Positions 1 through 32,067 of a stretch of DNA of 64,000 nucleotides are shown piece after piece. The position numbers and the translations under genes are program-made. Every line of letters begins with the position of its first letter. Positions within the stretch are counted from its first letter, which is position 1. The DNA is taken from assembly GCF_036588685.1 (NCBI RefSeq), contig NC_086377.1, positions 15,128,001 through 15,192,000 on the forward strand, read 5' to 3'. Under the pieces are notes generated by a model. The model was given only the letters and a program-made list of their open reading frames with translations, ran no database searches and was not told the origin of the DNA. This stretch comes from Mytilus trossulus. Its lineage: Eukaryota.

Positions 1-117
1 GAGGCCGGAATCAGCAACGAGAAAGAAAACCAAACTTGAATATCAAGAAACTCGCTATTAATTTAATAAAGAAAACATTAAGATAAATACAATATAATTT
101 CAAAGTACACATTTTGA
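1..117. repeat. Dispersed duplicate of 11233-11349 (1 mismatch)
   Basis: gaggccggaatcagcaacgag...gtacacattttga occurs at both positions; the copy here is cut by the window edge. Confidence 0.9.
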
Positions 118-634: not shown

Positions 635-2232
635 ATGAAAATGTTGCAAACAGTAGTTATCGGATTATGTGTTATTGTTGGAGTTTTAACCAAGGTTATA
701 CCCATCACAAATATTTGTGAGAGTCAGGATGGTGTACTTAGGTGTTCGTACAGTGGTGAGGGGCAGTACATCTCCCTGCAAGATCTAAACAACATTCGAG
801 AGATTCGGTTTGAAAGATTTTTCCAACCATCAACACTTTTCATTGAGAATGCCAAACAATTACGTCAAATTATCATACAATCAGGATCTACGCAGTGTGA
901 GGATATTTCTTGCGACAACCCAAAAGTATTGATATCAATAGCAGGCATCCCTTGTCAAGTAAGTTGTAGACTGGATTTTATTTGAGTGTATTTTTTTGTA
1001 ATCAATTTATGTTTTGAAACGCTCCCCTTTAATTTCCATGATAACCAATTGATCAACTAATCACCAAAGAATAAAAACCAAGAACTGCAAAGGGCCATCT
1101 CAAAGGTGATAATGAAACAAGTTATCATCAACATTACAACCAACACAGCATTAAGTTAATATACTTCATTTTTTTTATAGATATTTAATAAAAGTATTTC
1201 AAATGTGAAATTAAACTACAACTATAATTTACATTGTATCAGAATTTACAAGAAAAGTTTTTTAGTTTTTTTATTCCTTCTTTTTCAGTCATCCAAATTC
1301 ACAACCTCCAGCATCACTTATACAACATCAGAACCTGCTTCCTCCCATCAGGTATGAGTATATCCTACAAATAAAATAATTTCTTTTATAGATAATGATA
1401 TCTTTTAGTATGTACATATGTAAATAAGATATAAAATAATTTCTTTTATAGATAATGATATCTTTTAGTATGTACATGTAAATAAGATAATAAAACAAAA
1501 AATATATTATTGAAACAAAATGGTATAATGATTTTTTTAAATTACAGACAGAAAGACCAATTACTTCCACTACCAGCACACCACCATCAACTTTGTCTTT
1601 ACAAAGTGTTCTCTTGGTTGTTTTTGGTGAGTTTTAATAGAACATAACTATTTTTAATATGTTTAATACATGTATGAAATGAAATTTAAAACAACTAAAT
1701 AGGATTAAACTTTTGGTAAACAATTTAACCACCAACCCTATAATTTTAGTAGACAATTGTATATCTTAGTGGTTGATTATATAAATAAGCAATCAAAGAG
1801 AGAGAAGAGAGAGTTGTATTTTAATGAATTGATAGAATGAATGGAAGTCAACACCATGTTCAACAATACATTTGTACTATATATATAGCTACAACCAATT
1901 TGGGTAGACAACTGGTAAACCTTACCACTTTCAGCTAAAGGTTGTTTTTTTTGTGTGTATGTTGAAATAAAATATGAAAATTTTATAGTAAAAATTTAAA
2001 AGAAAAGATAGATTTTAAAATTGTCTTTTTTTTTTGCATTGCAGCTTCCCTAGCTATATTCGTTGGAATCCTTTTCACCATACACTTTGTAAGGAAATAT
2101 TTACAAAAAAAATCAACTAGACCACATTCTACACTAGACCAAGTTGTAATATCAAACTTTATTAATTCATCAAATTCCAGTATAGAACTTTTTAATTTAG
2201 AAAAGATAGACAGTATAAAAAAAAACGAATAA
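635..2232 (+). CDS. Spliced type-I membrane glycoprotein, apparently intact, ~217 aa; exons 635-958, 1289-1351, 1548-1626, 2045-2232; alternative last exon 2246-2474
   Basis: Signal peptide and Cys ectodomain (CSYSGEGQY...GIPCQ|gtaagt). S/T-rich exons, GT-AG boundaries with matching phases (0,0,1). TM SVLLVVFASLAIFVGILFTIHFV followed by RKYLQKK. Confidence 0.75.
1365..1490. repeat. 60-bp tandem duplication in intron
   Basis: ataaaataatttcttttatagataatgatatcttttagtatgtacat repeated at 60-nt spacing. Confidence 0.8.
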
Positions 2233-2528
2233 CTTTATTTTGCAGAAATTATTCTCTGTGCTCTATATGCATTCAGACCACAACTTGCTAATAATATACA
2301 AAGATTTTACGAACTTCTATTCCCAAATCGACCACTCCGACATCAACCCATCAACATTAACCAACAACCCATCAACATTAACCAAAGACCAAGAAGAAGA
2401 AGACAACATCAACCAAGAGTTCGAAATCTACCACTTAAAGCTAGAAACCAGCCAGACCGCCTTATGTACTATTAAAATGATTATTTCAAATTCACTATAC
2501 CTTAATTATGTTCTGACCACCTCCCTCC

Positions 2529-2793
2529 TCAATCTTCTATTTCATCATCACTGATTTCATAAAACCCCCCATCATCATCATCATCTTCTTCTTCTTCCTC
2601 TATCATTCCCATCATTACAAGTAAAACTAAGTCCAACTCCTCATCATCTAAGTGATAGATTTGGTAAATCATATCCTGATTTTCATCCACATCCTCATCC
2701 ACATCCTCGTCATCAGACAAATATATTTCATTTAACATATCCTGATATTCAGGATCTAGAATCAAATATTCATCAATTTCATAATTTTCCATC
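2529..2793 (-). CDS. Small highly acidic protein (~87 aa from MENYEIDEY); paralogue of 37568-37783
   Basis: D/E-rich ORF. The motifs DP-x-Y-x-x-MLNE-x-Y-x-SDD and GFY-x-x-S are shared with the 37.6-kb copy. Confidence 0.6.
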
Positions 2794-3586
2794 TTTACTC
2801 TATTATGTTTTATCATAAAATGATAATTTTTGCTATATGATATTTTAAACTCATAAAAATATTTTATCATTTATTACTTAGAAGAGACACATGAGACAGG
2901 CAACTTTATTAGTGTCATTTTTATTATCCTTTTGAAACTTCTTGAATTTTATATAACACATGTTAAAGGGTAACTCCACAAGATCCAGAAGTTGATTTGT
3001 CACATCTATTACATATTTAATTATCTCTTCAAGTAAATACTGTCTACCTTGATAATGTCATATACAAACACAGATAATTTAAAGTGTGACATGGTATGAT
3101 AATATAATAATTATCTTGTTAAAGAAGCCTATTGATTGTTTACTGTACAGTTAAAAACTTATCTATTTATTGAACTTACTCAGGTAATTATCGGCAATGG
3201 ACATTTGAGCGCATTGACAGGACATTTGAGCGAAAAAAAAGGACGTTTGAGCGCCAAAGTATAGGACATTTGAGCGCCTAAATTTTAGGACATTTGAGCG
3301 AAAATAAGAATAAGCGTAGGACATTTGAGCGAAAACAAGTCTTGGATAGAGAATTGTCTTATTGGCAATCATACCACATTTTCTTACGAATATAGTTCAT
3401 TAAATGAGGAGTTTACCAACAAAAAGATTAAAACATATTTTAATTGTAAAAAACAAAGCACTAAAAACAAAGCACAGTCATAAAACAGGAGTTTACCAAC
3501 AAAAAGATTAAAACATCTTTTAATTGTAAACAAAGCACTAAAAACAAAGCACTGTCATAAAACATAAAACTCGGCAACGGCATTAT

Positions 3587-4146
3587 TTACAAGTCTGTTC
3601 GGGCTTGGAACTTATATCCCAGGCTTCTGACATAAAAATCCCTCGTAATTTCCTGCTGGCAGTATTTCGAATGCAAATCCCGGAGATTCTGTTCCTTCTC
3701 CTTTTCTGTTCGGCTCTGCGGTGCATCAATGTTCAAAATCCGAATTTTTATGTTAGTCACAGATTGCAATTTGATAATAGTGTCAAGGAAAGTATAAATT
3801 GATGGATGACTGTGATAGAACTGCTCGTTATAATGGGCATGAAATGATTCGGGCCCATTGTTAGTACGTTTTAACGAGGATGGAACTTCGGCCCAGAGAT
3901 GAGGGGGAAATAACGATTCATCTGTTATATAAGTATCAGTCAGGTAATCTGCAAATTCTATACAAGGCTTGTCGTTAGGTACAACGGCCATAAAATCTTC
4001 TACGAAACAGTCGGCTACTTCGTCTGGAGCTAAAAAGGCTATCCCAAAAATCCCTTTAAGCCATTTACTAATGTCTGAATCAAGCTCTTTGTATTGTTGA
4101 CTAAGTCCAACTTTCTGGATTTTTCGCCACCAGGCTTGGCCTAAGT
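3587..4146 (-). pseudogene. MULE transposase C-terminal part
   Basis: LGQAWWRKIQ..., PPHLW, RTNNGPESFH, HPSIYTFL motifs typical of MULE DDE transposases; truncated at about 4146. Confidence 0.85.
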
Positions 4147-4235
4147 AGTAGTAGATGTAGTATGAATCCTAAAAAGACAACTCCTCATCCAAGACACAAT
4201 ATAATTAAAACAAGCAATTATATATTGTATATATA

Positions 4236-4342
4236 CACTGTAAAAATTGTGTTTAGGGCCTAAACACTTTTCTATACACATTTCATGTTAGATCTAAACA
4301 TGTTTAGGAAATGTTTAGGCTCTAAGCACAATTTTTACAGTG
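4236..4342. mobile_element. 107-bp hairpin MITE nested in the MULE
   Basis: TIRs cactgtaaaaattgtg / cacaatttttacagtg flanked by TA. Confidence 0.7.
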
Positions 4343-4610
4343 TATTGTATGAATATTGTAAAGTGCCTAGAAAATCAACCTAACAATGTTATATAGGTTA
4401 CAGTACGACCTTCAACATGGAGCCTTGATACCTAACCCTATATGTGGTAGCTTATATTCAAATGTGTTAAAAAATTAATCTAAAGGAGGTATAAGATAGA
4501 CATATAATGATATAGATATAAATCAAAATTAAAAGAAGTTATGGAAGTTGAAGCGTAACAGACGAACAAGTAGTTTACATTAACATTAAATTTGTAAAAA
4601 AAGGTACTTA

Positions 4611-4725
4611 CTGTACATCTCCAGGATATTTCTTCTCCTTTTAGTGTTTTGTCCACTCTATATCGGAAACTGTCACAAACAAGGCTTCTTTTTCCCTTAT
4701 TAGTCTCGGTCAAAATAATATCCAT
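4611..4725 (-). pseudogene. FLYWCH zinc-finger first exon of the MULE transposase
   Basis: MDIILTETNKGKRSLVCDSFRYRVDKTLKGEEISWRCT followed by a gtaagt donor. Confidence 0.7.
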
Positions 4726-6459
4726 TTTAACACGTACATGTATTATTAGTATTAAGATTTCAAGGGACATTTCACTTAATAGATATATATATAAGAATTT
4801 TAGAACAAAGAAAATTTGCATAGCCAATGAATTATAGTAGAATTGATTGGTAAATAGAGATCAACTTTGGATTTCACTTACATAAACCAGCCAGAACCGG
4901 TCGAATTACTCGGGTGTGAAATAAAATAAAAAATATTTATAACTAAATCTTACTTTTTTTTCTTACTTTTAAAAAAAAATCTTAATTCGTGTAAAATTAT
5001 CAGGGAAAATTTCGCTCAAATGTCCTGTCTGAAAACTCAGGTAAGGTTAATATCCCGGCGCTCAAATGTCCTATGAAGTCGGCGCTCAAATGACCCTATG
5101 TGCTTTTTTCTTTTTCGCTCAAATGTCCTATGCCCGTAATTATTACCCCCCTACCTACTTCCAAAATGTTAATTAAGAACTATACTTATAAGTATCCCAT
5201 ATGTTAGAGGTTATAAATTACCCACCTGTTTAATTTTAAACAAGATAATCTATATTTAACCTTTATATTATTTTTTTTAAATTATGTTTAAATTAGATAA
5301 ATACTTTTAATATATTTTTTAATATAGAATTAAAATTTTAGTCTTCAACATTCCTTTTCATGTAAACTATAATGTTCTAATTAGTACATTGTTGAATGTA
5401 AATATGTTATATACTGATGTTAAATGGTATTAATTAGTTGTTGTCACTGTACAGTTTATTTAGTTCTCAGATAATATGATAGTTATTCTGACCTACCTAC
5501 AAAAACAATAGTCTCGACAAAGATTTTATTCAAATCTAAATAATAGACAAATAGTTTTATTAAATAATGTTTGCTATTCATTATTTGAGTTGATAAAAAA
5601 AAACACTGATGCAATACTTGTGATAATACCATTAGGTTGGAAACTTTTTATAGTACTTTTATTGTTAAACACTCATATCATATGTTGTATTTTTTTTTGT
5701 TGTTGCCATAAATGTTATTAAACTATTGATAGTGCTGCTTGTACAGATAATGAATGATATTGGACCATTCAAAAGTATTTATTTGATTTGCAAACATTTA
5801 TTTTAATTTTTTTAAAGAAATTAAATGAGAATGAACATGGTGAAAGGAGAATAAAAGTATTCCTTATGAATTGAATAACTTATTTTGAATGGTCTTGTGT
5901 AAATATGTTTTTTTAATATATTCAATCAAACTTATGTATTTCATGTGATATAATATATATCAACATACAATCAAACTTGAGTAAGTTTTAAACTTTTTTT
6001 AATCACAAGATCTTTTTTTTCCAAACACTTATTTTTGTATATTTTTACAACTTAAAAGAAGAATAACAATTGGTTTTCTTTATATCATCCATAGTTTAAG
6101 GTTTGATTACATAGTACATAATACTCAATTTGTTGATGCTCAAAAGATATCATATCTACCACATAGTTGTTCAAGAAAAAAATGTGTTCATATTATACTG
6201 TTTTTTTTATATTCTCTTTATTAAAATTGCTATTGCAATTTAGATCTTGTATCAAGCTAAACTGTTACTATATTTATTATACCATGTTGTTTTTTTTTAA
6301 TTTTATATCAGATAGAATAAAAAGTTTTTGAATTTGATTAGCCTTAATTTTTTTATACCAACAACAGACAAAATCACCCTGCCTACCTGTCTGTCTAGAG
6401 TTGAAGTTCACCACCTCAACATATACATAAAAAAAACAACAACAAAAAAACACACAAAA

Positions 6460-7420
6460 AACTAGAAGTTATTGTTACAGTGAAACCTGTCTAAACCAAA
6501 CCCTTTCGGTTTTGGCAGGTATTCGGTTTAATCAGGTTCACAATGTATAAAATGTGATATGATTGTTCTTCATAATAAGTTTGGTTTAGACAGGTTTCCG
6601 GTTTATTCAGGGTTCGGTTTAATCAGGTTTCACTGTATACCCTAACAAAGTTCAGCAGAGAGTATTAGTATATAGAGAGCAATTTGTTTGTCTTAACTCT
6701 TGTGTTTATTCATTATCATGAATGTATGTTACAAACACAAAACAAAACAAAAAAAATCAAAAAAAACTTGTAGGTGAAAGTTCTGAAGAAAGGAATTAGA
6801 GGTTATTGTTATACCCAAATAAAGTTCAGCAGAGAGTATTAAATCAAACTTATAGGTGAAAGTTCTGAAAAAAGGAACTAGAGGTTATTGTTATATCCTA
6901 ACAAAGTTCAGCAGAGAGTATTAGTATATAGAGATCAATTTGCCTGTCTTACTCTCTGTGTTTATTCATTATCATAAGGTATGTAACAAACACAAAACAA
7001 AACAAAAAAAAAATCAAATTTATAGGCGAAAGCTCTGAAGAAAGTAACTAGAGGTTATTGTTATACCTAAATAAAGTTCAGCAGAGAGTATTAGTGTAAA
7101 GAAATCAATTTGTCTGTTTTAACTCTCTGTGTAGAAACTGCTGGTGAAATTCCTAAAGAAAGAAACTATAAGTTATTATTATACCATAACAAATTTAAGC
7201 GGAGATTATTAATATACAGAAATCAATTTGTCTGTCTACCTCTCTGTTAAGAAACTGTTGGATTATTCTTTATTCATTATTATGAGGTAAAATACAAACA
7301 AGAACATAAAAAAACCCGAAGGCGAAAGTTCTGAAGAAAGGAATTACAGGTTATTGTTATATCCAAATAAAGTTCAGCGGAGAGTATTAGTCTATAGAGA
7401 TCAATTTGTTTGACTGTCTT
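6460..7420. repeat. Degenerate tandem array, about 6 copies of core gaggttattgttata-N-aaagttcagcagagagtatt (spacing ~80-180 bp)
   Basis: Core recurs near 6465/6637 (split by a MITE), 6799, 6881, 7051, 7171, 7349. Confidence 0.8.
6478..6635. mobile_element. Tc1/mariner-pogo-type MITE
   Basis: TIRs cagtgaaacctg / caggtttcactg, TA duplication; interrupts one unit of the tandem array. Confidence 0.85.
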
Positions 7421-7454
7421 TCTGTACAGGAGTCAGTTTCACAAAAAAAAATAC

Positions 7455-7581
7455 TTAAACATTCCATTTGCATTTTCAAGAAGTCGTTGAACAAAGGATG
7501 TGTGCCACAACCTGTAGATCCGACAACAAGCATAGAAGTTGGACATTCAAAAGGTACAAGACTTTTGGTCTCCCACCACAT
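7455..7581 (-). pseudogene. N-terminal fragment of a Polinton-type A32/FtsK-like DNA packaging ATPase
   Basis: LVPFECPTSMLVVGSTGCG, then a 1-nt frameshift, then TSFVQRLLENANGMFK: Walker A with the characteristic PF-x-x-P prefix. Confidence 0.7.
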
Positions 7582-7779
7582 CTTCATTCGTATGCAATCA
7601 AACAATAAACTGATTGAAAATGTAATGGGTATTACTATATAAAGGAACCAAAAAAAACAAACAATTATATTAATATTAATATTTTTATTAGATAAAATTA
7701 CATATTATTGGTTGATGTGAACATAAAATACCACCAGCAACATTTATTATCTACTCTACAATTGCTAAATATTTTCATA

Positions 7780-8207
7780 TATGAAGATTAGTTAGTTTCT
7801 ACATGTTCTCCGTACAGCTTTGCATATAATAAAATGCCACATATCTCTCTTAAAACACCCCCTGAAATCTCTTAAAACGAATACATCTAAATGTTGTAAG
7901 TATGATAAAATCTCCTGTTCACGTAAATACCCACAATATATAATATCCATGAAACATATAAAGAATTTATGTTGTCAAAATCGATGTTACGCTGATCAAT
8001 CAACTCTTCTCCAACATAAAAAATATCTAAATCGTAGAAGTTAGAACTTTTTATAAATTGTTCATAGCAAAAATCTACAAATTGTTTTAAAATTAAAGTT
8101 GGGAATGTTACTAAGAAGTCTCTAATGACTTCTGGGGATTGACATGTTCTACTTATCCGATAAAGTGTTTCCATGGACAATTGAAAAAGGGATTGTTGTG
8201 TTGTCAT
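7780..8207 (-). pseudogene. Orphan ORF, frameshifted near 7940; N-terminus resembles a BC/SOCS box
   Basis: MTTQQSLFQLSMETLYRIS...IRDFLVTFPTLILKQF; reading continues in another frame (YCGYLREQEILSYLQHLDVFVLRDF). Confidence 0.35.
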
Positions 8208-8447
8208 TGCTAAATTATTGATAGTATATAATAAATTTCTCAATAAAGAAAAAAATACAAAAATAGTGAGATCAGATTATTCAAATAAGAATACAAAAAC
8301 AAAAAACATCAACTAAATATTCAAGTTTTGAATATCAATTACAAAATTATATTTGATTAACGACAAAATATTCACATATGGTATTTTTCTCTAAATGTTT
8401 ATATATTTACTTTTTTTTTTTCTTTAAATGTCTATACACATATAATC

Positions 8448-10286
8448 TCATTCGAAATCCGATTCGGAGGAGTCCGTTATTTCGATAACCTTCGGTCTCT
8501 TTGTGGTGAAGGTTTGCTTCTGAAATAAAAAAAAAGAAGAAATATTTTAGAAATTATAAAACTAAGAAGTTATCTCCATACATATGTAGGACTTTTAATT
8601 TATACTTGCTATTCTTACTTTTAAACCAATCAAATGGTAAATAAAAATAAAATCATGTTTGAAATTGGGTTTAAACAAGAGATGAATAGTATATTGTGAA
8701 TCAGTTTACAATCATGGATGATATAGAAAACAATCTAAACGATCTTGAAAGATCAGTGAATAGTAGAACTTTTCTTTTAGTGAAAATTATAGGTATATCT
8801 CTGATCCTATATTCCACTGGAGTTTCTATGGTAGCGGTTATAGAAATGGTTGGTGATCGTTCAAATTCAACATCAATATTTCAACAATTTCAGCTTAAAC
8901 GACCTAAACCGATCTTAGTTCCATGCATAGAAAAGTTAAAGTTTGCGATTGTGGGAGATGTATTTGTAAGAGTGTGTGCAAACATAAATGCGATAGTTGA
9001 CATTAGACAGTACAGAAACCAAACACCAACATCAACGGGGATATTTTTATCTACAACTCAGTATGAACATTTAAAAACAACTATCTTGCAAATAGACGAT
9101 TCTATAAAAAACATTACTAAAACAAAGTGAGAGAAAAAAATATCGAACTTGTGTATGTGTAATATGTAAACGTTTAACTAAAAAAAAACAAAAAAAAACA
9201 AACAAACATTGATAATAAAAAGTTATTCAAAATAGTGTTTCTTACCTCTTCTTCACTTCCTATAGTCTTGTGGCGACTTTCTATCGCTTCACTCAGAACA
9301 GATGGATTGTTCTTAACATTTGTCAGTTTCCGTTTTCGTTTGGTGATCTGAAGAAAATAATAAAAAAAAGTTACAGGAGAAATGTAATTCAAAGTTTTGC
9401 TTACATCAGTTTACAATATAAAACCAATTTTCTATTTAGGAAAAAAAAGTTATTAATTATCAATGAAATTCATATAAATAGATTTGTTATCCTCACCTTG
9501 TTGGTTGATTTCACGGGAGATGTAGCTACTTCCTGCTGTGGTGGTTTTTGTGTGGCGATCTACAATGGAAAAAAATATAACATAAATATCAAACATGACA
9601 TTGGAAACAATTTCAAAATATAGTTGAACAATTTAATGGATATGCATTAACTTTTTTTTGTAAACGTGAAAATTACACACATACACTTACATTTCTTAGT
9701 AAATGAAAATCTCTTTACTTTAAAAACTACATAATTCAAACAAAAAGATAGTATAGCATGTTATGAAAAAACAGAGATGGGTGATGTACAAAATAAAGAT
9801 AGTTAGATAAAAATAAACTTACATCGTAGTCTGCGCTTTTCTCTTCCTTTTTGGGATATAATCTTTTATTCTTAAAAGAAAAAAACATAAAATAAACAAC
9901 TACGCTTAAATCTTTGAATTTTTAAAAATTATTTGAATATTTTCAACAATACATACAACTTTCAAATGAAGACGAGTAAACCTTCTTTCTTGTTTTTATG
10001 AAAATCTCACTAAATGTTTTTATGAAAAGAAAAAGTCACAACTACATTTAGTAATTGAAATAAAAATTTAATCTACCTTATTTTGAATCACTTCCTTCGT
10101 ATCCGCAAAATTTCTTGTAAAGACTTCCATTAACTGCTCCATCTCATCTGCTCCTAATGAAATGGATTTTTGGTTTGGAATGTTCTCCAAGTGAACGTAA
10201 ACATACCCCTTCCACGAATTTATTGTAACTTTTTTGTTCCTACCAAATTTTAGTGTAGCCTTTGACTGGTCTTGGTTAAACTGCAT
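8448..10286 (-). CDS. Intact 5-exon PC4-like protein (164 aa); exons 10286-10077, 9870-9823, 9559-9497, 9347-9246, 8519-8448
   Basis: All four introns are GT-AG and phase 0, giving an open frame to TGA. Exon 1 FGRNKKVTINSWKGYVYVHL...SISLGADEMEQL fits the PC4 fold pattern. KRKRK NLS, acidic tail, upstream TATA at ~10366-10373. Confidence 0.75.
8714..9130 (+). CDS. Membrane-anchored PC4-domain protein nested in intron 4 of the antisense PC4-like gene
   Basis: Hydrophobic segment FLLVKIIGISLILYSTGVSMVAVI, then the PC4 signature VDIRQY...PT..GIFL...QYEHL. Confidence 0.7.
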   Translation: MDDIENNLNDLERSVNSRTFLLVKIIGISLILYSTGVSMVAVIEMVGDRSNSTSIFQQFQLKRPKPILVPCIEKLKFAIVGDVFVRVCANINAIVDIRQYRNQTPTSTGIFLSTTQYEHLKTTILQIDDSIKNITKTK

Positions 10287-10654
10287 GATGATTTGTTTTT
10301 CTTTTACGGTAATGGTTATTGGTAAAAAATCTGGAAGCAAGGTAGAGTTGAAGATATTTCGTTAGTTTATATAGGAAATGAGGTGTTATAATGTTTACTA
10401 GCAATTGGAAGATGGACGCGTATGTTAACACAACACACCAATACAATTGTTTTAAGGTGTGGCCAAGATAAAATTCGACATAAGCCACACCAATTTGATT
10501 TACAATTAACTTGAAATTGGAGATAAGATCATCAATTTATTAATTTATTTTAAAGACAAATTCGTGATAAAAAAAAAGAAGAACAAAAAAAACGATTTCG
10601 TATTATCATACTATAGTGTAATACAAATGTATTGTATTCGAGAAAAATGGAATT

Positions 10655-11134
10655 TGTTGAGACACTCGACGCAGCAGTAGCGATAGCTGTTGTGGCAGTT
10701 GCGGTTGTAGTTAAACTTGGATATAACGCAGCAAAATTTTGTGGCGTCTGTAACCGGGAATTTCCTGCAACAGATATCAGTGTTATAGAAAGCGTGGAAG
10801 GAATTATTGGCCGGTGTACGATAGATGGTCGTACTGGCGTGATACTTGATGGAAGAGTTGGCGGTCCTGTCCACGACGAAACGAAAGGATTAGATTTTAT
10901 AGGCGAAGACTGAGAAAAAGGCTGGTCGTCTCCGTAAGGGATTGTGGTATCGTTGTCACACTCGGCAACTTGGTGTTTAATTGGATAGCTCTTCTTGAAA
11001 CTAATAATATCGTCCTGCTGGTCTGCAAATATACCAAGGCCTTCAAATGCAGAGTCTAGTTTGTAATGAACCTGCTGTTTATAGTTATCAGGGGTCTTTC
11101 CAGGTTTCGCGGTTTTCTTTTCGTTGCTAAACAT
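10655..11134 (-). pseudogene. N-terminal half of a ~286-aa P/S/T-rich orphan protein (C-terminal half at 12547-13068)
   Basis: ORF 10550-11134 shares TLSIT...SSVST with ORF 12547-13107; 141-bp nucleotide duplication 10655-10795 = 12928-13068. Confidence 0.65.
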
Positions 11135-12546
11135 GATCCTCTACCATTATATTGTGTTGATGTTTTGTGGTGTTTTGGTGTCCCAACAATTGTAAAGCGC
11201 TATGGCACAATCTAGGGGGAGGTTCACGGTAGGAGGCCGGAATCAGCAACGAGAAAGAAAACCAAACTAGAATATCAAGAAACTCGCTATTAATTTAATA
11301 AAGAAAACATTAAGATAAATACAATATAATTTCAAAGTACACATTTTGAAGTCAAAGTAAGTAAAAACAATGAAAAAATAGTACAACAATTCAGATTTCC
11401 TATTAAATAATAACAATAAAGATTACTGTATAAATAAACCTCTGAATTAAAATATTAGTAACTTAGAAACTTTATTTATTTTTTCCAAAATAAAATTAAA
11501 AGAAAAATAGTTTTAAATTTAAATTATTTTCAAAAACAAGAGACTCACCTAGAATATCAAGAAACTCGCTATTGATTTCATAGCGGCTTGATAAGTTTAT
11601 ATACTAAGTTCTGAATGTCCTAGCAAGTAACAAACAAAAGAATGTATGATTTATGAGTTATCGACAACATGTATAATACAAAAATAAAGTTGCAGACGTC
11701 GCTTGACCGTTGTCCGAACTTTTAAGATGCTCTTTATAACTTTACTAGACATATATATATAATTTGGTAACTGCTGCAGTCTCATTGTCCAGACAAATTG
11801 AATAGTTTATAAAAATGCTTGTTTGACATAACGCTTGAAAAATGTATAGAACATTTAAACAATAATTCTATGTAAAATAGTTTACAAAGTAGAACCCGCA
11901 TACATTAACTAATTAACCATATGAAATAAAATAAACTACATTTTTCTATTACAATAATCGCTCTCCCTTTGAAAAAGAGATTGTTCCACCAATCAAAATA
12001 TATAAACACAAAGAAAAACACTCAATAAAAACACCTTTTTTTTTCTTTTTCAAGAATCATAAAATACACAATGAATAATAAAACATGTATATAGTACAAT
12101 TTAAATATTGGTATATATAAAAATGAATATTATATATCTAATGATCTAAAGGCCTTTAACTATTTACAGATGTACCTTAAGATACTGATTCTAATGATTA
12201 TTCTGAGATTATACACGTCGTATTCTAAATATCATTAAAATGCAGTAAACTTTTATTTACGTTAACGATTTTTCCACGATACTTAATTTGCCTCAATGGA
12301 CAGAAGAAGTGGGTCCTTTTTCATTAAAATTCTTATATATTTTATAAATACATTACAATTAACCTTTGGCTATGAGCTAATACAAGTTTTTCGCGTTTAT
12401 ACGCGCACTTGAATCTAAGTTAGGCGATTTGGGGATTATCTGATAATATAAGAAGGAAGTCTAACTTGAATGGGTCATCTTTGGCAAAATTGTGGAAATT
12501 AAAATTTTATTAAATGATAAATAAATGTTAAATGTAAATTTTCTAT

Positions 12547-13068
12547 TTAACGCAAATAGTTTCTGACTTGTCTCTGATAGGATTTTTGCAATCTTTCAAA
12601 ATAATCGATATATAAACTAATAAAAGGGGGTAAATCATTATGTGGAATTTCTATTTCTGGATTGTTAAGAAGAGTATATAAACAGGATGACTGTAGAGTT
12701 AAATAAGAAAAGGGGTCATACACGTAGGAAACTGTATAATTAATCGCATCTAAATAATCTATGTCATCATGATTGTTTATCAATTTGTTCCATACTTGAT
12801 GTGGCGAAAGTTTAAATAGATCCATATCTGGTAACTCTGAAGAATTTGTTGATGGTAATGTTGTTTGTCCTGTTGTTGCTCCTGGTCCTGTTCCTGACGT
12901 TGTTGTTGTTGTAACTGATTGTGTGGATGTTGAGACACTCGACGCAGCAGTAGCGATATCTGTTGTGGCAGTTGCGGTTGTAGTTAAACTTGGATATAAC
13001 GCAGCAAAATGTTGTGGCGTCTGTAACCGGGAATTTCCTGCAACAGATATCAGTGTTATAGAAAGCGT
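12547..13068 (-). pseudogene. C-terminal half of the same orphan protein (T-rich linker plus helical domain)
   Basis: Open frame to a natural stop; the 5' side is cut at the junction with polB (13068/13069). Confidence 0.65.
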
Positions 13069-16000
13069 TTTTCTGGTGGTTTGGTAAATGTTAAAAATGA
13101 GGATCACAAATGTTTCTTGTGGAGCATATTAGCAGGTCTACATCCAGCTCAACGAAACCCTAATCAAGTTTTACATTATAGAAAATATGAACACTCTATG
13201 GATTTAACCGGAATCGACTTCCCCGTTTCATTGTCTAAAGTTGAAAAATTTGAAAAACAAAATGACTTATCCATCAACGTGTTCGGGTGTGAAGATGGGG
13301 TTGTATTTCCACTATACCTTTCAAAAATGGACAATGGATATAAAGAAATTATTTTATTGTACTTATCAAAGGAAAATAATTCTCATTATTGTTGGATCAA
13401 GAATTTCAGTCGTTTCCTTGGACACACACGAAAGCATCACGGTCAACTTCACTATTGCCATCGATGTTTGCATGGGTTTATTAGAAAAGATTTGCTAGAT
13501 AAACACCGACCATACTGTGACAAATTCGATTTTCAAAAAATTGAATTACCAGAAGAAGGGAAAAATATTCTTGAGTTCAAGGATTTCCATAAAAGTATGC
13601 ATGTTGGATTCACGATTTATGCTGATTTTGAGGCACTGACTCGGAAAATGGATTCATGTTTACCAGATCCGAATATATCATCTACAACACATTGCACGAA
13701 ATTTGAAGCTTGCGGTTATGCTTATCAAGTCGTATGTACCAACAGTAACTACACCAAACCCCCAGTTGTTTACAGAGGTAAAAATGCTGTCGAACGTTTT
13801 TTTGGAGACATGTTTAAAGAAGAAGAGTACGTTAATGGTATTTATGGTGACATTGAACCTTTGATCATGACCGATGAAACAGAAAAAAAAATCAAAAGTG
13901 CAACTCATTGTAATATTTGCAGCGGCAAGTTTTCTGATGGTCTCATCAAAGTCAGGGATCATTCTCACATTGGTGTGACTGGGGATCGATATTCTGATAA
14001 CTATAGTAATTACAGATCAGCAACTTGTCAGGCCTGTAATCTGAATTTGCAAAATCCATCATTCATCCCCATATTTTTTCACAACTTTCGCGGATTTGAT
14101 TCCCATTTACTGATAGAAGCTGCCGGAAAATACAAGGACAAGAAGATCGTGTGTATTCCAAATAATATGGAAAAGTATATTTCCTTCTCTGTTGGAAATT
14201 TAAGGTTCTTGGATTCGTACCAGTTCATGTCGGAAAGTCGGAGAGGCTGGTAAAAAATTTAGCTGTAGACGGTCTGACTCATTTTCACCACTTTAGAAAA
14301 GCTTTTCAATCCGATGAAATAGCCAAATTGCTACTACGTAAAAATGTCTATTGTTATGACTATGTAGATAGCCATGATAAATTCGAGGAGACTATGTTAC
14401 CCCCTAAAACAGCTTTCTACAACACCATAAAAAGAGAGCATTTTTCTAATGATGACTATGATCACGCACAACGTGTCTGGGCTGCTATGGACATGAAAAC
14501 ACTTGGTGATTATCACGACCTTTATATATTAACTGACGTTTTATTGCTGGCAGATGTGTTTGAAAGATTCAGGACAATGACAATAGAATACTATGGACTT
14601 AATGCCTGTTATTTTTACACAGCCCCTGTACTTGCTTGGCAAGCTGCCTTAAAAATGAGTGGTGTCAGTTTAGAATTGTTAACATCTCCAGACATGTATA
14701 ACTTTTATGAACTCGGTTGTCGAGGTGGATTAAGTATGATTAGTCAAAAGTATGCTAGGGCTAACAATAAATATGTTAAAGGTTATGACTCTACTAAACC
14801 TAGCTCATATCTGATGTATTACGATGCCAATAATTTATATGGTTGGGCTATGTCACAACCTCTCCCAACTGGAATGATGCGATGGTTAGATGCGGGTGAA
14901 ATACAAGAATTCAACTTGTTAAAAAAAACAATTGATGGTCCAAAGGGCTACATGCTTGAAGTCGACCTGGAATACCCAAATGAAGTACATGAAAATCACA
15001 ATTCCTACCCCTTAGCCCCCTCACACAAGCACGTGGTGGACGAAGAGCTTTCACCATACAGTAAATCGTTGAATGAAGATTTATATGGTGAACACCGGAA
15101 AAGACCTAAAACGATCAAACTGATACCAACGTTGGAAAACAAATGTAACTACATTACCCACTACAGAAATCTACAGTTATATATCAAATTAGGAATGAAA
15201 ATCAAGAAGATCCATAGGATCATAGAATTTGATCAATCTCCCTGGCTAGCTAAATACATATCCTTTAATACGAAGAAACGTCAAAAATCGAAAAATTGCT
15301 TCGAAATTATTATTTTTAAATTAATGTGTAATTCCGTCTTCGGAAAAAACATGGAAAACCTAAGAAACAGAGTTGATATCAAACTCGTCAATAGCGAGCG
15401 TAGTTTAAGAAAATATACTAGCAAGCCGTCGTTTGAGCGGTTTCAAATCTTCAATGAAGATTTGGTTGGAATTCAAAACAAGAAGACGAATTTATTACTC
15501 AATAAACCCGTCTACGTGGGAGCGAGCATATTGGAACTTTCTAAAATCGTTATGTATGATTTTCACTACAACGTAATGAAGTCAAGATATGGGAAAAATA
15601 TCAACCTTCTCTTCTCCGATACAGATTCTCTGATGTATGAAATTTCCACTGAAGATATTTATCAGGATATGATGACGTTTAAAGATTATTTTGATACTTC
15701 GGCATATGATGTAGAGAACAAACTCCATTCAACAGTTAATAAAAAAGTTGTTGGGAAAATGAAAGATGAATTATCTGGTAAGTGTTTTATTCAAATAGGC
15801 ATACCCGCATATTTAATTTCAAACAATAAATATAAAAGTCAAGTGAAAGTAAATTATCTGTACTTGTTCATACTTTAATTGTTTTCATACTTTAAATGTC
15901 AAATATGTTGGGTTTTTTTTTTTTTTACATTATAATTACTATTTGATTTTATCCTTTTCAAGAGTCCCTATTACGGAATTTGTAGGGTTGCGTCCAAAGA

Positions 16001-16314
16001 TGTATTCCATAATCTACGATGTTGATGGAACACAGAATGAAAAACGAACAGCTAAGGGAATAGCCAAGTGTGCCGTAGACCAACAAATTAGACATGAACA
16101 TTATAAACAGTGTTTGTTTCAAAACAGAATGACTTTAAATGATATGAACTTGATTCGTAGTGATAATCACATTCTATATGTGAATCACATTAGAAAAACT
16201 GGACTGTGTAACTCTGATGATAAGCGGTTTTGGAAAAATTCCATACACAGTTATGCGTTTGGACATTATACAATTCCAATTGTAAATAAAAGTTGTAATG
16301 TATATTGTAAATGA
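13069..16314 (+). pseudogene. polB: Polinton/adintovirus-type protein-primed family B DNA polymerase (endonuclease-VII/HNH-containing lineage), 5'-truncated, 1 frameshift, 1 intron
   Basis: vOTU-like KCFLWS...SHYCWI; ExoI YADFE; Endo-VII CNIC...RDHSH...CQACN; ExoII HNFRGFD; ExoIII YILTDV; Pol A DANNLY, B KLMCNSVFGK, C DTDS; then LRPKMYS and KGI. Frameshift at ~14239, intron 15778-15961. Confidence 0.93.
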
Positions 16315-16430
16315 AATTAATACAATAAAATATGTGTACTTGTTTTTTTTGTTGTTTTTTTTAATTGATGCTCATAAGAACTACAGAGATAAAGCTGAAC
16401 ATCACAAGACTACCGTTTGCACAAATATAG

Positions 16431-17017
16431 TCACTGTAGTTGGCTTAAATACTCCATTGGGTTATAATTCTCCTCTCCCGGGATTTTAGGTTTTTTGTTT
16501 ATCATATCACCTTCTTTACTGTCCATGGATCTCTTATTAGAATGGTTAAGCACTCTTAAATGTTGCGCTGTGTAGGGTGGTGGTGGAGGCGTGGCTTGAG
16601 ATGTCAACGGAAGCAACCCTTTTGCAGTTTGTGGTGAATGGTGTTGTGGAGGATGCTGCATAGGTTGTTCTTTTTCCTTAAAAGAAATGAAATTAAATTA
16701 GTCACTTTTGAAAAAGTTGATATGTTTAGATTGTATTTTTATTGGAGTTCGACTGAATTAAAGATGGATAAAAATGAAAAACTTACCTCTAATTCATTAA
16801 ACAGTTGCTCCAACGCTTCTTTCATGTTAACTAGTTCACAGAATTCATCATAACCAAGAGAGCATCTTCCCGGGTTTCTAGGATTGTTGTTGTATAAGTT
16901 TATATAAAAATAGTCATTCACTTTTGTTAATACTATAGCCATATTCCTCCCGAAATTGGTACGCATCTCCAAATTTCCCTTTATACTATTTTTCTTTGCA
17001 AAAGCGTAACTTTCCAT
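16431..17017 (-). CDS. Intact 2-exon divergent PC4-like protein (158 aa); exons 17017-16787, 16676-16431
   Basis: Phase-0 GT-AG intron. FGRN...YFYINLY...CSLGYDEF aligns with the 10286 gene. Pro-rich tail with PPPPY and KKPK; TATA at ~17084-17092. Confidence 0.7.
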
Positions 17018-18282
17018 TATGTTTATTCTAAAATTAGCAGTATATGAAGAATAAAAATATGTAGTTTTGAGTTAGGTGTTGGGTTTATATATAGTATTAC
17101 AAAAAATATTTGGGAGGGTGGGGTGGGTATTTAAGCTACGTCCCTCTTCATTTGCCCAATTGAATTGATGAATGCATATTTGAATACATGTAGATCTATT
17201 CCTATGGGAGTACAGTTCTCTTCAGGGTTTTCTGACTCGATGTTCTCACGGTCTAGAAAATGGTGATACATTTAATGTCAGAATTAATTTTTAATACTCT
17301 AGCTTATTAACTAATTAAAACAAAATGGAAGATCTGAACATGGGAAAAGGATAACCCTAGAAAGGCTTTTCTAATTTATTATAAATCATCATCATGTACG
17401 GAATAATTTACAGTTTAAAGTTAACCATCATATGATTTATCAAAACAGGCGCTTAACTGTTTGAGTTTCTTTGGTGGGTCAGGTAATTATATATATATGC
17501 ATATCTAACTTGAAATTATGTGGTATGGATATTTTATTAAAATATACTGACGGATTTTGTAATGTATTTTATGGTAAAAATTTCCATTCTTAATTTTGAA
17601 CTCGGACTTCTCTTGAACTGTATTTTAATTGTATGCATTTTGCACCCGTCCTAAGTCGGGAACCTCTAGCCTTTTTTTTTTTTTTGTCTTGTATGTAGGG
17701 TTGATGTCTCTTTGACACATTCCCCGTTTCCATTCTTTATTCTATTAATCCCTCATTTACTGGATAACACAATGTCAATTTGCGCAGAAATAGAAAATCA
17801 TACTCAAAACATATGAAAAGATTAAAAATTATCAAAATCGCACTATGTTGATATAAACGAACAGAAAAACCACGTGGGATAACAGAACATTTAACAAAAA
17901 CTACCTTAGCCATTGAAAGTCATTTATTGTTTTATAAATTTCATCATAGGATATAGTCATATATCACGAGTTGTCTCTCTCTAAACACAAACGATTGACT
18001 AACACAACAAATAACATAGTGTGACAAACAAACTCATTCCATATAATGAACAGATAAAAAAAACCTGTCATTTTATGCAACAACCAAACTCTTTTGTGTT
18101 CAACGAAATATAGAGGGGTGGGGGGCTAAATAATCCTGTTCATTGAGTTGTGGCTAATCTTACATGGTAGACAACTCTATAGTTAAAATACCATTCGGAA
18201 CCTAGATTTTAATAGATTCATCAAAGCCCCTAGAGAGGTCAAGATTTCCCGCGGATTTTAACCATATGACAATGTCTGAAAA

Positions 18283-21094
18283 AATGGCTGTCTCATATTT
18301 TCTGTGCTTATTAATAATATATTTCCAAAGTGCTTGTGCAGTTCGATACGATATAACGGAAGTATGTGAAAAGGAATTTGACTTAAACTTTAAGTTCATA
18401 GGGTATGTATGTTCTTTCCGAGGAGAGGGGACATACATTTTCAAGGATCGGGGGCACTCCGAGTCTGGTGACGCAACCATAAGCTTTGCTATGATCAATA
18501 TACAAACTTTTGTTTTAATTCAAACACCAATCAGAAAACTGGAAATTCGACGAGGGGTTATGGAACTGTGTTCAAACATTTTACTACCAACAGAGGAATT
18601 CTTATAACTGTTAACGGACAGGAATGTGTAAGTGTGTCTCCTCACATAAACAAATTGTGCGTACACCCGAAAGACAGCGTGTTCCCTCCAAAAAAGAATG
18701 TTCAAATAATTTCTTTTCTTTTTCTATATTTATGAACGGGTATTTGTTAGCTAAGGGATGTTTTAAAGCTTTACTATCAATGCATGTCCCAAGTCAAGAG
18801 TCTCTAATTTTAGTGAACTGATCGTTGGTTTTCTGTCATTTGAATTTTAACTGGTCTTTTGGAGTCGTAAAGCTTTTATACTTTGCAGTGTGAGTCAAAT
18901 TATTATGCTCTGTGTTGAAGTCCCATACTGTGACCTATAACTGTATAATTGCTTACATCAACAACATTATGTCTGGAGAGTTGTTTCATTAGCAATCATA
19001 CCATACCATAGTTTTCTGTTCAATCTGAACTTGTTTGTGTTGTTTTCTGTTCACACTGAAAAAACATTTACTGACTACATTGCATCACATTGATTTCAAT
19101 TAAAAAACAAGAAAATATTTACTCTTTAATCTACATTTTTCTCTCAAAATGATACATCAATTGGTATTATATATGTATTTAATAGTTTTCTTAAATTTTG
19201 AATGTTTATAATTGGCACTATTTTTCCATTGTCCTTCCTAGAGCTCGAACAGTCAAATGGTTTCCATATCTGAAAAAAAGTTATAGAAATTAATTACTGA
19301 ATAAAAAATCTTCACAAATAAATTTTAATACCAAAAACAATTTGTATAAGAAAGAAAAATTTATGTATTTGTAGAATTTAATAGAGGATAATCCTCAATC
19401 TTTAGCCTGTTGCACAAATTGTCTTAAATGTGTAGGTGTGTATTATCTCTAGTGCATGCCTTAGTATTTTTTTTTTAATATATTTTATACATCTTCATCA
19501 GTTCAAATATTTAACTAGAAAACATTTTATTTATCCTAACAGGCAACTGATCATGATGTATCCTCCATAACATCTACGGCAGACAAATTAACCATGATTC
19601 AAACTGCCACTCAAACCATGGAAACCATGACAGAAACAATGACCTTTACAGTAAGTACAATTTAAATCTTAGAACTATATTGTGTGTATAGACACACACA
19701 CACAAAGGAATGTTAATATTCACAATCATGGATATATAGTTACCAGTAATAAGATACATGTAGCAACCCTCAAATAAACTGAAAGTGTGATAGAAATGTT
19801 GTTTAAAATTCAGCTTTTATATGCTGATCATTTTACGAAGCAAATAATTTTTTCTTCAACAAAACAGTGTAAATACTTTTTTCTTACAGGTATTGGAAGC
19901 GCAGGTGTCTTCTTCAAAGGCAGCAGACAAGACTGCTACGTATACTTATGTAAGTAATTAAGCAAATATGCGTACCTTAAATACCTTCTTCTGTTTGCTC
20001 ATTTACATCTGTTACATCGGTTACTTGATCTACATGTACTTCTGTTACTAGCTCTGAATATGACGGTGGTGGATTCAATATAGGAGAATTTGATCGTGAT
20101 GAGGTACTTTGACTATCCAGAATATCTTCCTCATCAAAATGAATCTGTGGTAGCTGAATTGTTCTGTTCACCTTCTCCCTACAATTATAAAATAATTACA
20201 ATTCCATTATTTCTTTTTTTAAATTGTAAAATTCTTTACAATGCATTTCTGTTTCCATTTTCAGACTGATAATCAATCCTTAGGCTTGGATGATGAAAGA
20301 TTGGCATGGTTGTATTCAACTGTAAGCTTGATTATTGGTAAATATTTTTAAAATTACATAGTGTGATCATAGAAATGTGTGAAAATGCCACGCAAACATT
20401 TATTTGGTATACCTGTTTGTTTTTAAAAAACACTAGATGCACACCATATCCTGATATTAAAATACAAGTATTACATACATAAATGATCATATTAAATGAT
20501 AGCAATCCACCTTTTAAGGTTTCTAACAAACTTCATGATTAACAGGAAATAACTAATTTTCCCCCTTGTTTTTTTCAGTCATTGCTATCGCCCTGATTGT
20601 CTGCTGTTACAGATGCTTTAAAGCCAGAGCCCGCAATTCATCAAAGAAAACTAACCTGTTCGAACTTTCATCTGACATACATTTTGAAGTACCTGAAGCC
20701 ATTCAGATAGATTAATTTTTAGAAATAAATTTTTTGAATATGCATTCTAACATTTTCTAAGTCATGTGGAAGTCATTATTCTGAATTTCAAATATATTGA
20801 TTCTTTCAGTATATGATTTTGCTGACTCTGCTTATATTACATCAACTGTTTCCAGAAAATGAATTTGTCATTCAATAAAACCAACTTGTAAGGCATATAC
20901 CAGCTATAGCTCGTGGCATTAACGGGAACAGACAAAATAATCAACCAGAACCTCAGCACAATAACCAAGACGGACAAAATAATCAACAAAATGTTATTCA
21001 AAATGTTAATAAAAATGTTAATCACCCTATCCCACCTCAGAGGTTAAGAAGATCTGATCGTATAAAACGACCAGTGCAAAGGTTGTCTTTGTAG
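18283..21094 (+). pseudogene. Spliced type-I membrane glycoprotein, paralogue of the 635 gene; exons 18283-18627, 19543-19650, 19890-19949, 20265-20321, 20810-21094 (alternative last exon 20579-20715)
   Basis: Signal peptide, CSFRGEGTY, NGQEC|gtaagt; T-rich exons; TM LAWLYST|YMILLTLLIL. Frameshift at ~18597 and a premature stop at 20876. Confidence 0.65.
19977..20530 (-). pseudogene. Antisense TM exon (20412-20530) and PPxY-containing tail exon (19977-20178) interleaved in introns of the 18283 gene
   Basis: GLLSFNMIIYVCNTCILISGYGVHLVFFK with a gtatac donor; ttgtag acceptor then ...NPPPSYSEL; phases differ by one base across a homopolymer. Confidence 0.45.
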
Positions 21095-23280: not shown

Positions 23281-23609
23281 TAGATATGTAGTTGTTTTTA
23301 CTGTTCTTAGCAATTCATTCAATTTGTACTGCAGTCATATATCAAAGTTATTTTCCTCTGCTTTTTCATATCTGAAAGTGTGCATTTGATCTGAAGTAAA
23401 AAGTCTAAAATGTTTTTATGTTTTTGTAACAGTATTGACACTTATTAACCAAGCCTTCAAAATACCTCAATTTTACATACAGGTACTTTTTATTACACTG
23501 TTCTGATTCTGTTTTTTTGTTGAATGATAATAAAATTTGTTAACTAAATAATGTCTTTGTTTTGTTGTATAGGTTATTATTTTCAAAGTTCAAACTATTT
23601 GCAGGCGTG

Positions 23610-25455
23610 TGAAATTCACAGCTTTACTTTCATCATCGCTAAGAAAAAAGAAAATCCGCATATCATTAAGACTAAAGCGTTAGAGTACATCGACAATGCA
23701 TATAAAAATCATTTAAAAATTTACACCGATGGCTCAAAAGACCCAGCTTCGGGTAAAACTGGATATGCTTTTTTAATCCCATCAAAGTTGACTGCAAGCT
23801 ATAAACGAACGTCAGACAATCTTTCAGTTTACACCACAGAAATGACGGCCATATATCAATCATTAAAGTGGGTATTCTCCAATCAACAGCCAGGGCAAAA
23901 AGTTGTTATTCTAACTGATTCATATAGTGCAATCCAATCTATAAATAATAATGCATCAAGTAGACCCGATATCCTAGAACCAATTCAAATACTGGCTTGT
24001 CGTCTAAAACAAAAAAAAATATAGAAGTAACCATAGAATGGATACCAGCGCATGTTGGTATCCTAGGTAATGAACAGGTTGACAAACTAGCTAAATTAGC
24101 ACTAAGTAATGATAAGATTGGCCTTAACTTGAGTCTTAGTGCAAACGAACTCATTGCAATAACAACAGCATTATATATTAACACATGCTCCCTATGGAGT
24201 CGTTCTATACATACTGCAGTAAATAAAAAAACCAACTTTTATCAAGGTAATCGATTTCATGCAAAAACAATAACTAGACTTAGGTTGGGCACTACTTTAT
24301 TACCTGGGCAACTAGGCCAGTACATACGCAATGTCTCTCCATTATGCAATACATGCGACATTTAAGATGATATAGAACACGTACTAGTAAACTGTATTAA
24401 TCATTCACAAGCGAGACAAAATTTGCAATCAAACTTGGACAAGGTTCAAATACAAAATATTAATACCAAAATTTTACTAGATCCTCCTAAAGACAAACAA
24501 AGACAAGACAAATGTCTGGTCGTGCTTGGTACAATATTTAACAGAAATTGATTATCGTAAATTTATATAAGTATATATATATAAAAAACAGTCATAGAAA
24601 TAAAATAATTAAAATACACTGCTAGAGTTATCCGGGTCAGTGACTCAGAAATGGAGTCAGGCCGTAACCGGCAGTCAAAAACTAAATCTTCACTTCCAAT
24701 ACAGTACGTACTAAAGAAAAGATCGTTAAGAAGACCAGCTACGCTGCAAGAGTTATCCGGGGTCAGTGACTCAGAAATGGAGTCAGGCCGTAACCGGCAG
24801 TAAAAATCAAATCTTCAATACAAATACAGTACGTACTTACTAGAAAAGATCGTTAAGAAGACCAACTACTCTGCAAGAGTTATCCGGGGTCAGTGACTCA
24901 GAAATGGAGTCAGGCCATAACCGGCAGTACAGATGGATCTTCAAGACGACTTACCACAGCATCATTAAAGGGGCAAAACATACTGCAAGAGTTATCCGGT
25001 CAGTGACTCAGAAATGGAGTCGGGCCATAACCGGCAGTAAAAATTAAATCTTAGACAAATTAAATCCAAATTAAATATGATAAAAAATAAAAAAAAAATT
25101 AATCCTTTGAAATAACTTAACATATTTAAAATTAGATAAAATGAATGGGGATTAGTTAATTAAACTATTAGAATTATGCTAACTAAACAAGAACGCACGA
25201 TAACCTTTGTTTTTTTTTCCAAATTCGCGGCAACCCAAATTATTTTTGTTTCTACTTTTGGTCATTATATAAATTTTTCATGTCATTAAGCCGCAAGTCA
25301 AATCTAAGACTTAAAAAAATGGTACGTCGCAAGATCTGGTTTGCGCTTATCTAGTTTTAATTAGCGTGGGGCACTGTCTTCCTGCGGATAAGTGTTCCAG
25401 TGTACTAGCACTCTAAAGTCCTGCAACTACGGTAGGCTAGCACAAAGCAGTCAAA
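23610..25455 (+). mobile_element. 5'-truncated RNase H-containing non-LTR retrotransposon (I/Nimb-like) with long 3' UTR
   Basis: YTDGSK, EMTAI, TDS, WIPAHVGILGNEQVDKLAK (RNase H); RLRLG and C-x2-C...H-x4-C knuckle; frameshift at ~24015 and stops. Confidence 0.85.
24615..25040 (+). repeat. Four tandem copies (~115-135 bp period) of a conserved GC-rich hairpin
   Basis: ctgc..ccgg ggtc tgactc-agaaatg-gagtca ggcc..ccgg cag nested stems conserved in all four copies while the spacers diverge. Confidence 0.8.
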
Positions 25456-27623: not shown

Positions 27624-27889
27624 ATCACACAACTGCTTAACTCTGATAACTTTAATGCTGTATTCATTTTTCATGATATATTAGCCACTATGTTCTCCAA
27701 TATATGAAAATACAGCCTTACTTTGATTAAATTGTGCAATTTTTTTTTTTAAATATAATTGAAAAAACAGACACAAAGATATGGTAGTACTTAAAATCTA
27801 CTCTGTTGTGTCAGAGTTACACTATTTTTTTCCAAGAAATGTCAAGGTGTTTATCTTTTCCCATTCTTATGAATTAAACTATTACCTAT

Positions 27890-28082
27890 TTTTATTAGCT
27901 CACCTGGCCCAAAGAGCCAAGTGAGCTTTTCTCATCACTTGGCGTCCGGCGTCGTCGTCGTTTGCTTTTACAAAAATCTTCTCCTCTGAAACTACTGGGC
28001 CAAATTGATCCAAACTTGGCCACAATCATCATTGGGGTATCTAGTTTGAAAAATGTGTCAGGTGACCCGGCCAACCAACCGA
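27890..28082 (+). mobile_element. HINE 5' fragment
   Basis: ttagctcacctggccc...gtgagc, (gtc)n, same core start as the 32068 element. Confidence 0.8.
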
Positions 28083-29746: not shown

Positions 29747-30160
29747 TAGTGAGGACAAATATAGTTATATATCTTAGTAAATTCACCAATCAAATAATTC
29801 TTTGCTCAGTTATGTTATTTTGTTGTTCTTTATATAACCTCATGTTGTCCCTTGTGTGTGTTGTGATTTGGAAATAAAATATTCATCATCTTCTTCTTCA
29901 TTATAAAATGACATGGTTCAAAGTACATCCTAAATATGTCTTAGAATCATTACTATTTTTCTTCAGACTCGAAAATTCTACAACAGTCTCTCACAAAATG
30001 TTTCCAACATAGTATCCATATTATATGACAATACATATATGATTCAAAACAAAAATGTAACAAAAAAAGGGATACCGTAACAAAATATGTATTATTTGAT
30101 ATTAACCACAGACCGTTACATTTGAAAGGTATATACATTTGTCTTTCTGTGTCCCTTCAG

Positions 30161-31970: not shown

Positions 31971-32067
31971 ATATATTTGTTCTTCAAATATGTTTGCACC
32001 TCTCTAATTTCTTCTAGTAAAACTGGTGCTCTAAGACAATTTACACAGGGAATGTGATTCATGTCAT

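Follow-up and report, generated by a model that had tools for sequence, protein, structure and literature searches.

Composition of the permuted segment

The 64,000-bp window analyzed here (Mytilus trossulus contig NC_086377.1, positions 15,128,001 to 15,192,000) carries a segment, 10655-13068, that begins and ends with 141-bp direct repeats (2 mismatches, sharp ends, spacing 2273 bp). Its parts total 2414 bp, or one 2273-bp unit plus the 141-bp redundancy, and on the minus strand the C-terminal part of a coding region comes first and the part with the ATG at 11134 comes last (Table 1). Base shuffles of 5001-18000 (n = 50) gave exact repeats of 18 nt at most, so the terminal repeats and permuted order described in the initial annotation are real. 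When the repeats are joined, coding parts of 480 nt and 381 nt (232-141+290) form a single frame of 286 codons plus stop, in agreement with the ~286-aa ORF proposed earlier for the 2273-bp unit. The same annotation took this frame for one gene with a promoter between its halves; it is instead a chimera of a gag exon and a second ORF (ORF4) joined at a splice donor (12837/12836), and the supposed promoter is an LTR. Since the two repeat copies have diverged by 1.4% (95% range 0.2-5.1%), the insert is young.

Table 1. Parts of the permuted segment, its flanks and a related LTR piece (window coordinates)
Feature	Position	Strand	Evidence or remark
Second LTR piece, equal to 11233-11349	1..117	-	cut at 5' side; runs off window start
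Left flank: AT-rich DNA and ORFs	7887..10654		PC4-like 10068-10361 (-), 8690-9130 (+); ORF 7887-8276 (-)
Left 141-bp redundancy	10655..10795	-	repeat comparison
gag exon 5' part, ATG 11134, S/T/P-rich, broken at 10655	10655..11134	-	97% identity, P0002/P0028 residues 1-160, P0030 N-terminus
PBS-like site	11135..11146	-	TGG 3 nt past LTR end; 12 nt before gag ATG
Single LTR, 807 bp	11150..11956	-	6-nt inverted termini; loose ends and high depth
3'UTR	11957..12546	-	low depth like ORF4, unlike LTR; no ORF of 60 aa or more
Polypurine tract (PPT)-like run	11958..11970	-	12/13 purines; 1 nt before LTR
ORF4 exon, 92-aa ORF, own ATG 12825	12547..12836	-	in frame with gag exon; predicted all-helical
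gag 5' exon, 3' part, up to splice donor	12837..13068	-	last exon base 12837; X11 contigs
Right 141-bp redundancy, mid gag 5' exon	12928..13068	-	matches residues 114-160 of gag-family P0002/P0028/P0030
Right flank: 5'-truncated, frameshifted family-B DNA polymerase, presumably Polinton/Maverick-like by motifs	13069..16314	+	

The unit has the order exon-ORF4-3'UTR-PPT-LTR-PBS-exon, with only one LTR, whose limits are defined by three DNA runs and one RNA run (X24) mapped onto 9900-13800. Summed depth, which is not a copy number, reached 1911-3458 over the LTR in run X1 versus 67-184 over ORF4 and the 3'UTR and 41.5 over the polymerase, and 600-1687 over the LTR block in X11 versus 12.7 over the polymerase. 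Loose ends with unrelated flanks were found at both limits, at 11956 in 3 contigs of X1, 5 contigs of X2 and 30 reads of X24, and at 11150 in 3 contigs of X1 and 24 reads of X24. The LTR termini are TATTGT..ACAATA, not TG..CA; the flanks of other LTR copies start with CAA (plus strand) and one ends in CAAG, which suggests a target-site preference. The window contains no tRNA genes and no tRNA was matched to the PBS-like site, whose string is absent among the PBS strings in the available supplements of PMC13524379.

Other features of the LTR include a 34-bp direct repeat (11267-11300 and 11549-11582), the upstream copy of which is followed by a donor-like GTGAGT motif at 11548. In addition, X24 contains four RNA reads with a 940-nt jump (11459-12400) from the 3'UTR into the LTR, the ends of which are non-canonical; these reads represent a deleted variant of the element. 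As the initial annotation had noticed, part of the unit recurs at 1-117, where it matches with 1 mismatch (99% identity) in the same orientation, 11.2 kb away. This second LTR piece shows that the neighborhood also fragments elements in place, and it may be part of the same rearrangement.

Decayed mobile DNA also lies at 30029-31536, 36773-37249, 43978-45533, 3587-4860 and 23548-24365. It includes an RNase H fragment and a FLYWCH/Mutator-like piece, besides pieces of a second Polinton-like polymerase and an ORF resembling a tyrosine recombinase, these two recognized by eye. A viral secreted family is possibly represented by four short signal-peptide-like ORFs (602-985, 18206-18607, 40762-41190 and 53472-53945) that have a common Cys pattern; three of them look homologous by eye. 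A 502-bp tandem repeat with a GTCC-rich core (32056-34270, 63123-64000 and 27880-28178) is of a kind that we take to be typical of bivalve Helitron-like elements.

The gag splice donor, ORF4 and the parent element

The ATG-bearing part of the chimera encodes the S/T/P-rich N-terminus of a Ty3/gypsy Gag. Named Mytilus proteins make up 24 of its 26 homologues (identity up to 98%); for example, P0030 is a full Gag that has a CCHC-like end besides its Retrotrans_gag domain (E 3e-10), and in P0032 the same leader is followed by protease and RT. The C-terminal part tracks Gag up to 12837 and then enters a different 96-codon frame that contains the 92-aa ORF. Three X11 contigs diverge from the window at 12837 into GT-starting sequence that encodes unspliced gag (compare P0030), and the junction sits exactly on the gag splice donor.

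The donor site was found in 22 of 33 proteins with the gag N-terminus, 10 of which continue as Gag and 12 of which depart from it, while the remaining 11 end or diverge upstream of the site or were unscored. All departures (13/13, with 9 distinct partners) start on a codon whose first base is G, the requirement of a phase-1 splice. Since this protein-based evidence comes mostly from gene models, in which a GT site is obligatory, it supports use of the donor in vivo and is not proof of it. Among these models, P0017 joins the donor site to the env start, P0055 runs on as Gag at the same place, P0031 joins it to host lectin exons, and the unpermuted gag-ORF4 arrangement is present as the natural models P0028 and P0002. 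In X2, a contig stops 4 nt beyond the gag-ORF4 junction, as expected where two forms branch, and in another lineage two distinct sequences join ORF4 from upstream at a single position (P0036 versus P0041/43/44). The RNA run has a depth of 0-1.4 at 12782-13043, with no junction-covering read in 6% of the run. A splice in the element RNA is the putative source of the gag-ORF4 joint.

The same donor is joined to many partners in models P0031, P0017, P0008, P0010, P0011 and P0019. These partners include a host C-type lectin/Ig gene (RefSeq LOC143080591), a possible case of LTR exaptation as an alternative first exon of a host gene.

Capsid, pol and env have no match anywhere in the window. Because the junction is donor-exact and these regions are gone, the 2273-bp unit is best read as the one-LTR form of what would be a reverse-transcribed spliced subgenomic RNA. 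We place high confidence in the identity of the parts.

The parent is probably an F-type-envelope, chromodomain Ty3/gypsy element (errantivirus) of mussels. An env ORF behind pol was found in the relatives P0053, P0052, P0058 and P0054; the envelope is F-type (Baculo_F, E 8e-12 for P0054, with agreement from an atlas search), and P0053 has an integrase C-terminal SH3 and a chromodomain ahead of env. The pieces of the pol order lie in separate records (gag-PR-RT in P0032, IN-chromo-env in P0053), and the whole order is in no single record. A 35,452-bp contig carries the models P0021 (gag N-terminus and chromodomain) and P0034 (env and ORF4), which have neighboring accessions; on another contig, the accessions of P0004 (gag) and P0058 (envelope) differ by two. 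From these neighbors and the order in P0053, we infer a parent order of gag-pol-chromo-env-ORF4. Family members also cluster, with two to four models on several contigs (lengths 1578649, 534050, 4567971, 487352, 666608 and 1905163), which may point to arrays, tandem or nested, or to regions resembling piRNA clusters.

ORF4, which is located behind an envelope fragment in P0034, belongs to a small family (7 matches among 1.84 billion representatives), has no Pfam match, and its atlas matches are unnamed or unrelated. The model predicted for the ORF4 protein P0036 has five helices (pLDDT 73), and a fold search gave a best Z of 4.5 and no Foldseek match below E 0.5; the missing match is no evidence of a new fold. 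A metagenome scan with the ORF4 alignment yielded one of 319 candidates (L002), a DNA contig that carries a decayed ORF4 at 739-1072 (frameshift, stop) with a leader-type junction. Next to this copy lie a hAT transposase that looks intact and, judged by eye, a DIRS-like gag fragment. The scan of viral contigs with the ORF4 alignment (0/212), the metagenome scan with the gag exon (0/133 candidates) and the search of viral contigs for the LTR-PBS motif (0) gave nothing; one of 25 viral contigs found with the ORF4 query (L001) has a 15-residue match that was judged to be chance. The leader of P0038 has no significant similarity to the Mytilus gag leader, and a 'gag exon' in that lineage is a candidate proposed from composition.

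A FAST/sORF2-like fusogen was considered for ORF4 and rejected, as no transmembrane stretch is visible by eye and fusogen RNAs are unspliced in the available text of 10.1101/2025.03.14.642691. By analogy with MMTV Rem (as described in the accessible part of PMC11998498) or Cer1 CERV, ORF4 might be a regulatory accessory protein, which is a guess and an improbable one.

Insertion site and origin of the segment

Both outer ends of the segment lie within gag and not at LTR termini, no TSD of 4-11 nt is present within 5 nt of either end, and the flanking polymerase has lost 1.4 kb or more; therefore, integrase did not insert the segment, and the copy is a derivative and not a provirus. On the right, the motifs DANNLYG, KLMCNSVFGK and SDTDS were recognized by eye, and we take them to mark a Polinton/Maverick-like family-B DNA polymerase. 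Searches of Pfam, NCBIfam and PDB sequences gave no match naming a polymerase, and viral-contig scans with this flank were empty (0/6 and 0/3). The left end adjoins AT-rich DNA and then a PC4-like ORF with an E of 0.001, below the cut-off. This amends the initial annotation, in which both outer ends abut unrelated viral pieces.

Sequencing runs provide information on the junctions. In X1, a polymerase contig (contig 8) reaches 30 nt into the right repeat and stops there, as expected at an assembly branch with k=31. Because 7 of the 762 nt compared are different in the window, the right junction is present in X1 on another haplotype, ~1% different, and X1 may be related to the source sample; its presence there also makes the misassembly foreseen in the initial annotation unlikely. 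In X11, contig 16 has the uninterrupted polymerase, with 1443 upstream letters unlike the window and a 3-nt overlap with the repeat end, so the insert was accompanied by deletion and microhomology. The left junction is bridged by no contig among those listed, and no 'go back' joint occurs among the 15 joints listed. In Mytilus edulis, gene model P0026 starts inside the repeat, contains the junction twice and ends with an exon that corresponds to window ORF 7887-8276; this gene model, maybe of a paralogous site, suggests that two or more tandem units are present on an allele or in a paralogue.

These observations can be accommodated in a model in which a Mytilus errantivirus (LTR-gag-pol-chromo-env-ORF4-LTR) would make a spliced subgenomic RNA that joins the gag 5' exon to ORF4. 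Because such an RNA would keep the PBS, the PPT and the LTR ends, it could be reverse-transcribed by the element's own machinery, and the one-LTR 2273-bp form would exist as a circle or as a head-to-tail product of a circle. A 1.06-unit stretch with its start and end in the gag exon would then have been copied or captured into a chromosomal break without integrase. The break would have been in a decayed Polinton-like element, where the incoming DNA would have replaced 1.4 kb or more from the 5' region of the polymerase. The 141 bp could have arisen when copying overran its starting point on the circle, or when a circle opened with a stagger was filled in. An origin by a copy of a one-LTR circle, or of its concatemer, patched into a break is the most likely reading, and one in which we place modest confidence. 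The resulting insert is incapable of transposing by itself, and its LTR could serve as a promoter or poly(A) site.

The initial annotation had likewise proposed an over-unit piece of a circle or concatemer, and that part of its proposal fits; its other suggestion, a genome segment, does not if a DNA virus is meant, as an LTR, a PPT and a PBS-like site lie inside the unit. In established retroelement biology, and in the available text of PMC12951756 and 10.1101/158386, a PPT-LTR-PBS joint has three sources and no other: a one-LTR circle, its concatemers and a shared-LTR tandem. The joint would, however, also be found if a spliced copy had integrated normally, formed a tandem by LTR-LTR recombination and had both ends trimmed in gag, by two deletions or by copying from an array elsewhere, with no free circle. 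This tandem route corresponds to mechanism A in the accessible part of 10.1101/158386, yields the same sequence as capture of a circle, and contigs from circles and tandems read alike. Family members clustered on the same contigs, a second unit suggested by P0026, and the LTR piece at 1-117 together with the truncated polymerase, which show local deletion, all agree with it. Such a route requires, however, that both outer LTRs and their flanks be lost, with the two breaks falling no more than 141 bp from one point of a 2273-bp unit, and no outer-LTR remnant or TSD is found at either end within the window, so it is regarded as a real but lesser possibility. An intact gene elsewhere with other flanks, which the initial annotation took as a sign of ordinary duplication followed by two deletions, is trivially present in a multicopy mobile family such as this one, and hence decides nothing.

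The remaining explanations account for fewer of the data. Collapse of a repeat or a mis-join in this repeat-rich region might be suspected from the multicopy nature of the family, the unbridged left junction and the hint from P0026 that a longer array may have been collapsed to 1.06 units; the two differences between the repeat copies and the right junction in X1, on its diverged haplotype, make such an artifact very unlikely. Least credible of all is the idea that the 141 bp are an unusually long TSD, or that the flanking DNA virus contributed the unit as a segment or a defective circle. The direct repeats at the two ends and the Polinton-like flanks might invite it, but the repeat codes for gag and runs without a break into the interior on both inner sides, the uninterrupted polymerase of X11 lacks the 141 bp, and the interior is LTR-element sequence. 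An L1-type processed retrocopy was excluded, since a whole LTR lies inside and the ends have no poly(A) tail or TSD.

Relation to known systems

According to the available text of PMC12951756, no by-product of LTR retrotransposition is commoner than one-LTR circles, which are described there as a dead end by which the germline is protected. A heritable, permuted and terminally redundant copy, if true, would mean that one-LTR circles can re-enter chromosomes without integrase, and its signature (one internal LTR, ends inside a gene) would let such events be counted genome-wide. The locus would also expose a small conserved protein without an assigned fold, ORF4, and the splicing programme of mussel errantiviruses, in which env, ORF4 and host exons all share one gag donor. 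A bolder proposal, which we advance tentatively and think rather less probable than not, is that the segment is a germline-fixed rolling-circle copy of a spliced-RNA one-LTR circle whose unit number varies between mussels, and that ORF4 is a conserved, undescribed accessory gene of bivalve errantiviruses, made as a Gag-leader fusion like Rem/Rec, with spliced copies spreading non-autonomously.

One-LTR circles, spliced proviruses, shared-LTR tandems, permuted eccDNA reinsertion and bivalve errantiviruses are all already known. Searches of the open-access literature gave no report of a permuted integrated spliced one-LTR unit, of a gag-ORF4 splice or of ORF4. Bivalve errantiviruses (env-carrying Ty3/gypsy, Metaviridae) are catalogued in PMC13524379, the available part of which lists five Mytilus californianus and three Mytilisepta elements, with M. 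californianus LTR coordinates that span 385-875 bp. Like the proposed parent, these elements have an F-type env and belong to a chromodomain clade in Mollusca; unlike them, the window copy is without capsid, pol and env. The available main text of that paper contains neither the string 'splic' nor a passage on an ORF behind env, and that of PMC6238403 has nothing on env or splicing.

Other systems resemble individual features of the segment. The accessible text of PMC12951756 reports one-LTR circles of nomad, copia, HMS-Beagle and mdg3, defined by the PPT-LTR-PBS joint; these are extrachromosomal and rarely integrate, whereas the one-LTR form in the window is chromosomal, permuted, over unit length and apparently derived from a spliced RNA. 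In the spliced proviruses treated in the available part of PMC11998498 (MMTV rem-type Mtvs, spliced HERV-H), which are rare, the deletion likewise equals the intron of an accessory transcript and the ORF is kept, but they are colinear vertebrate proviruses, while the window has a permuted invertebrate gypsy copy that lost most of gag, pol and env at once. Bari1 arrays, shared-LTR tandems and rolling-circle concatemers (10.1101/158386, as far as its text is available) are similarly head-to-tail, with partial terminal elements and no normal TSD; by comparison, the window has only 1.06 units, and the unit is probably a spliced LTR cDNA. Finally, in the eccDNA-mediated permuted duplications of human, cattle and yeast described in the accessible part of PMC7188851, a circle is likewise opened internally and reinserted in permuted order, but those circles are excised chromosomal DNA, whereas the unit in the window would be a reverse transcript, with a 141-bp redundancy.
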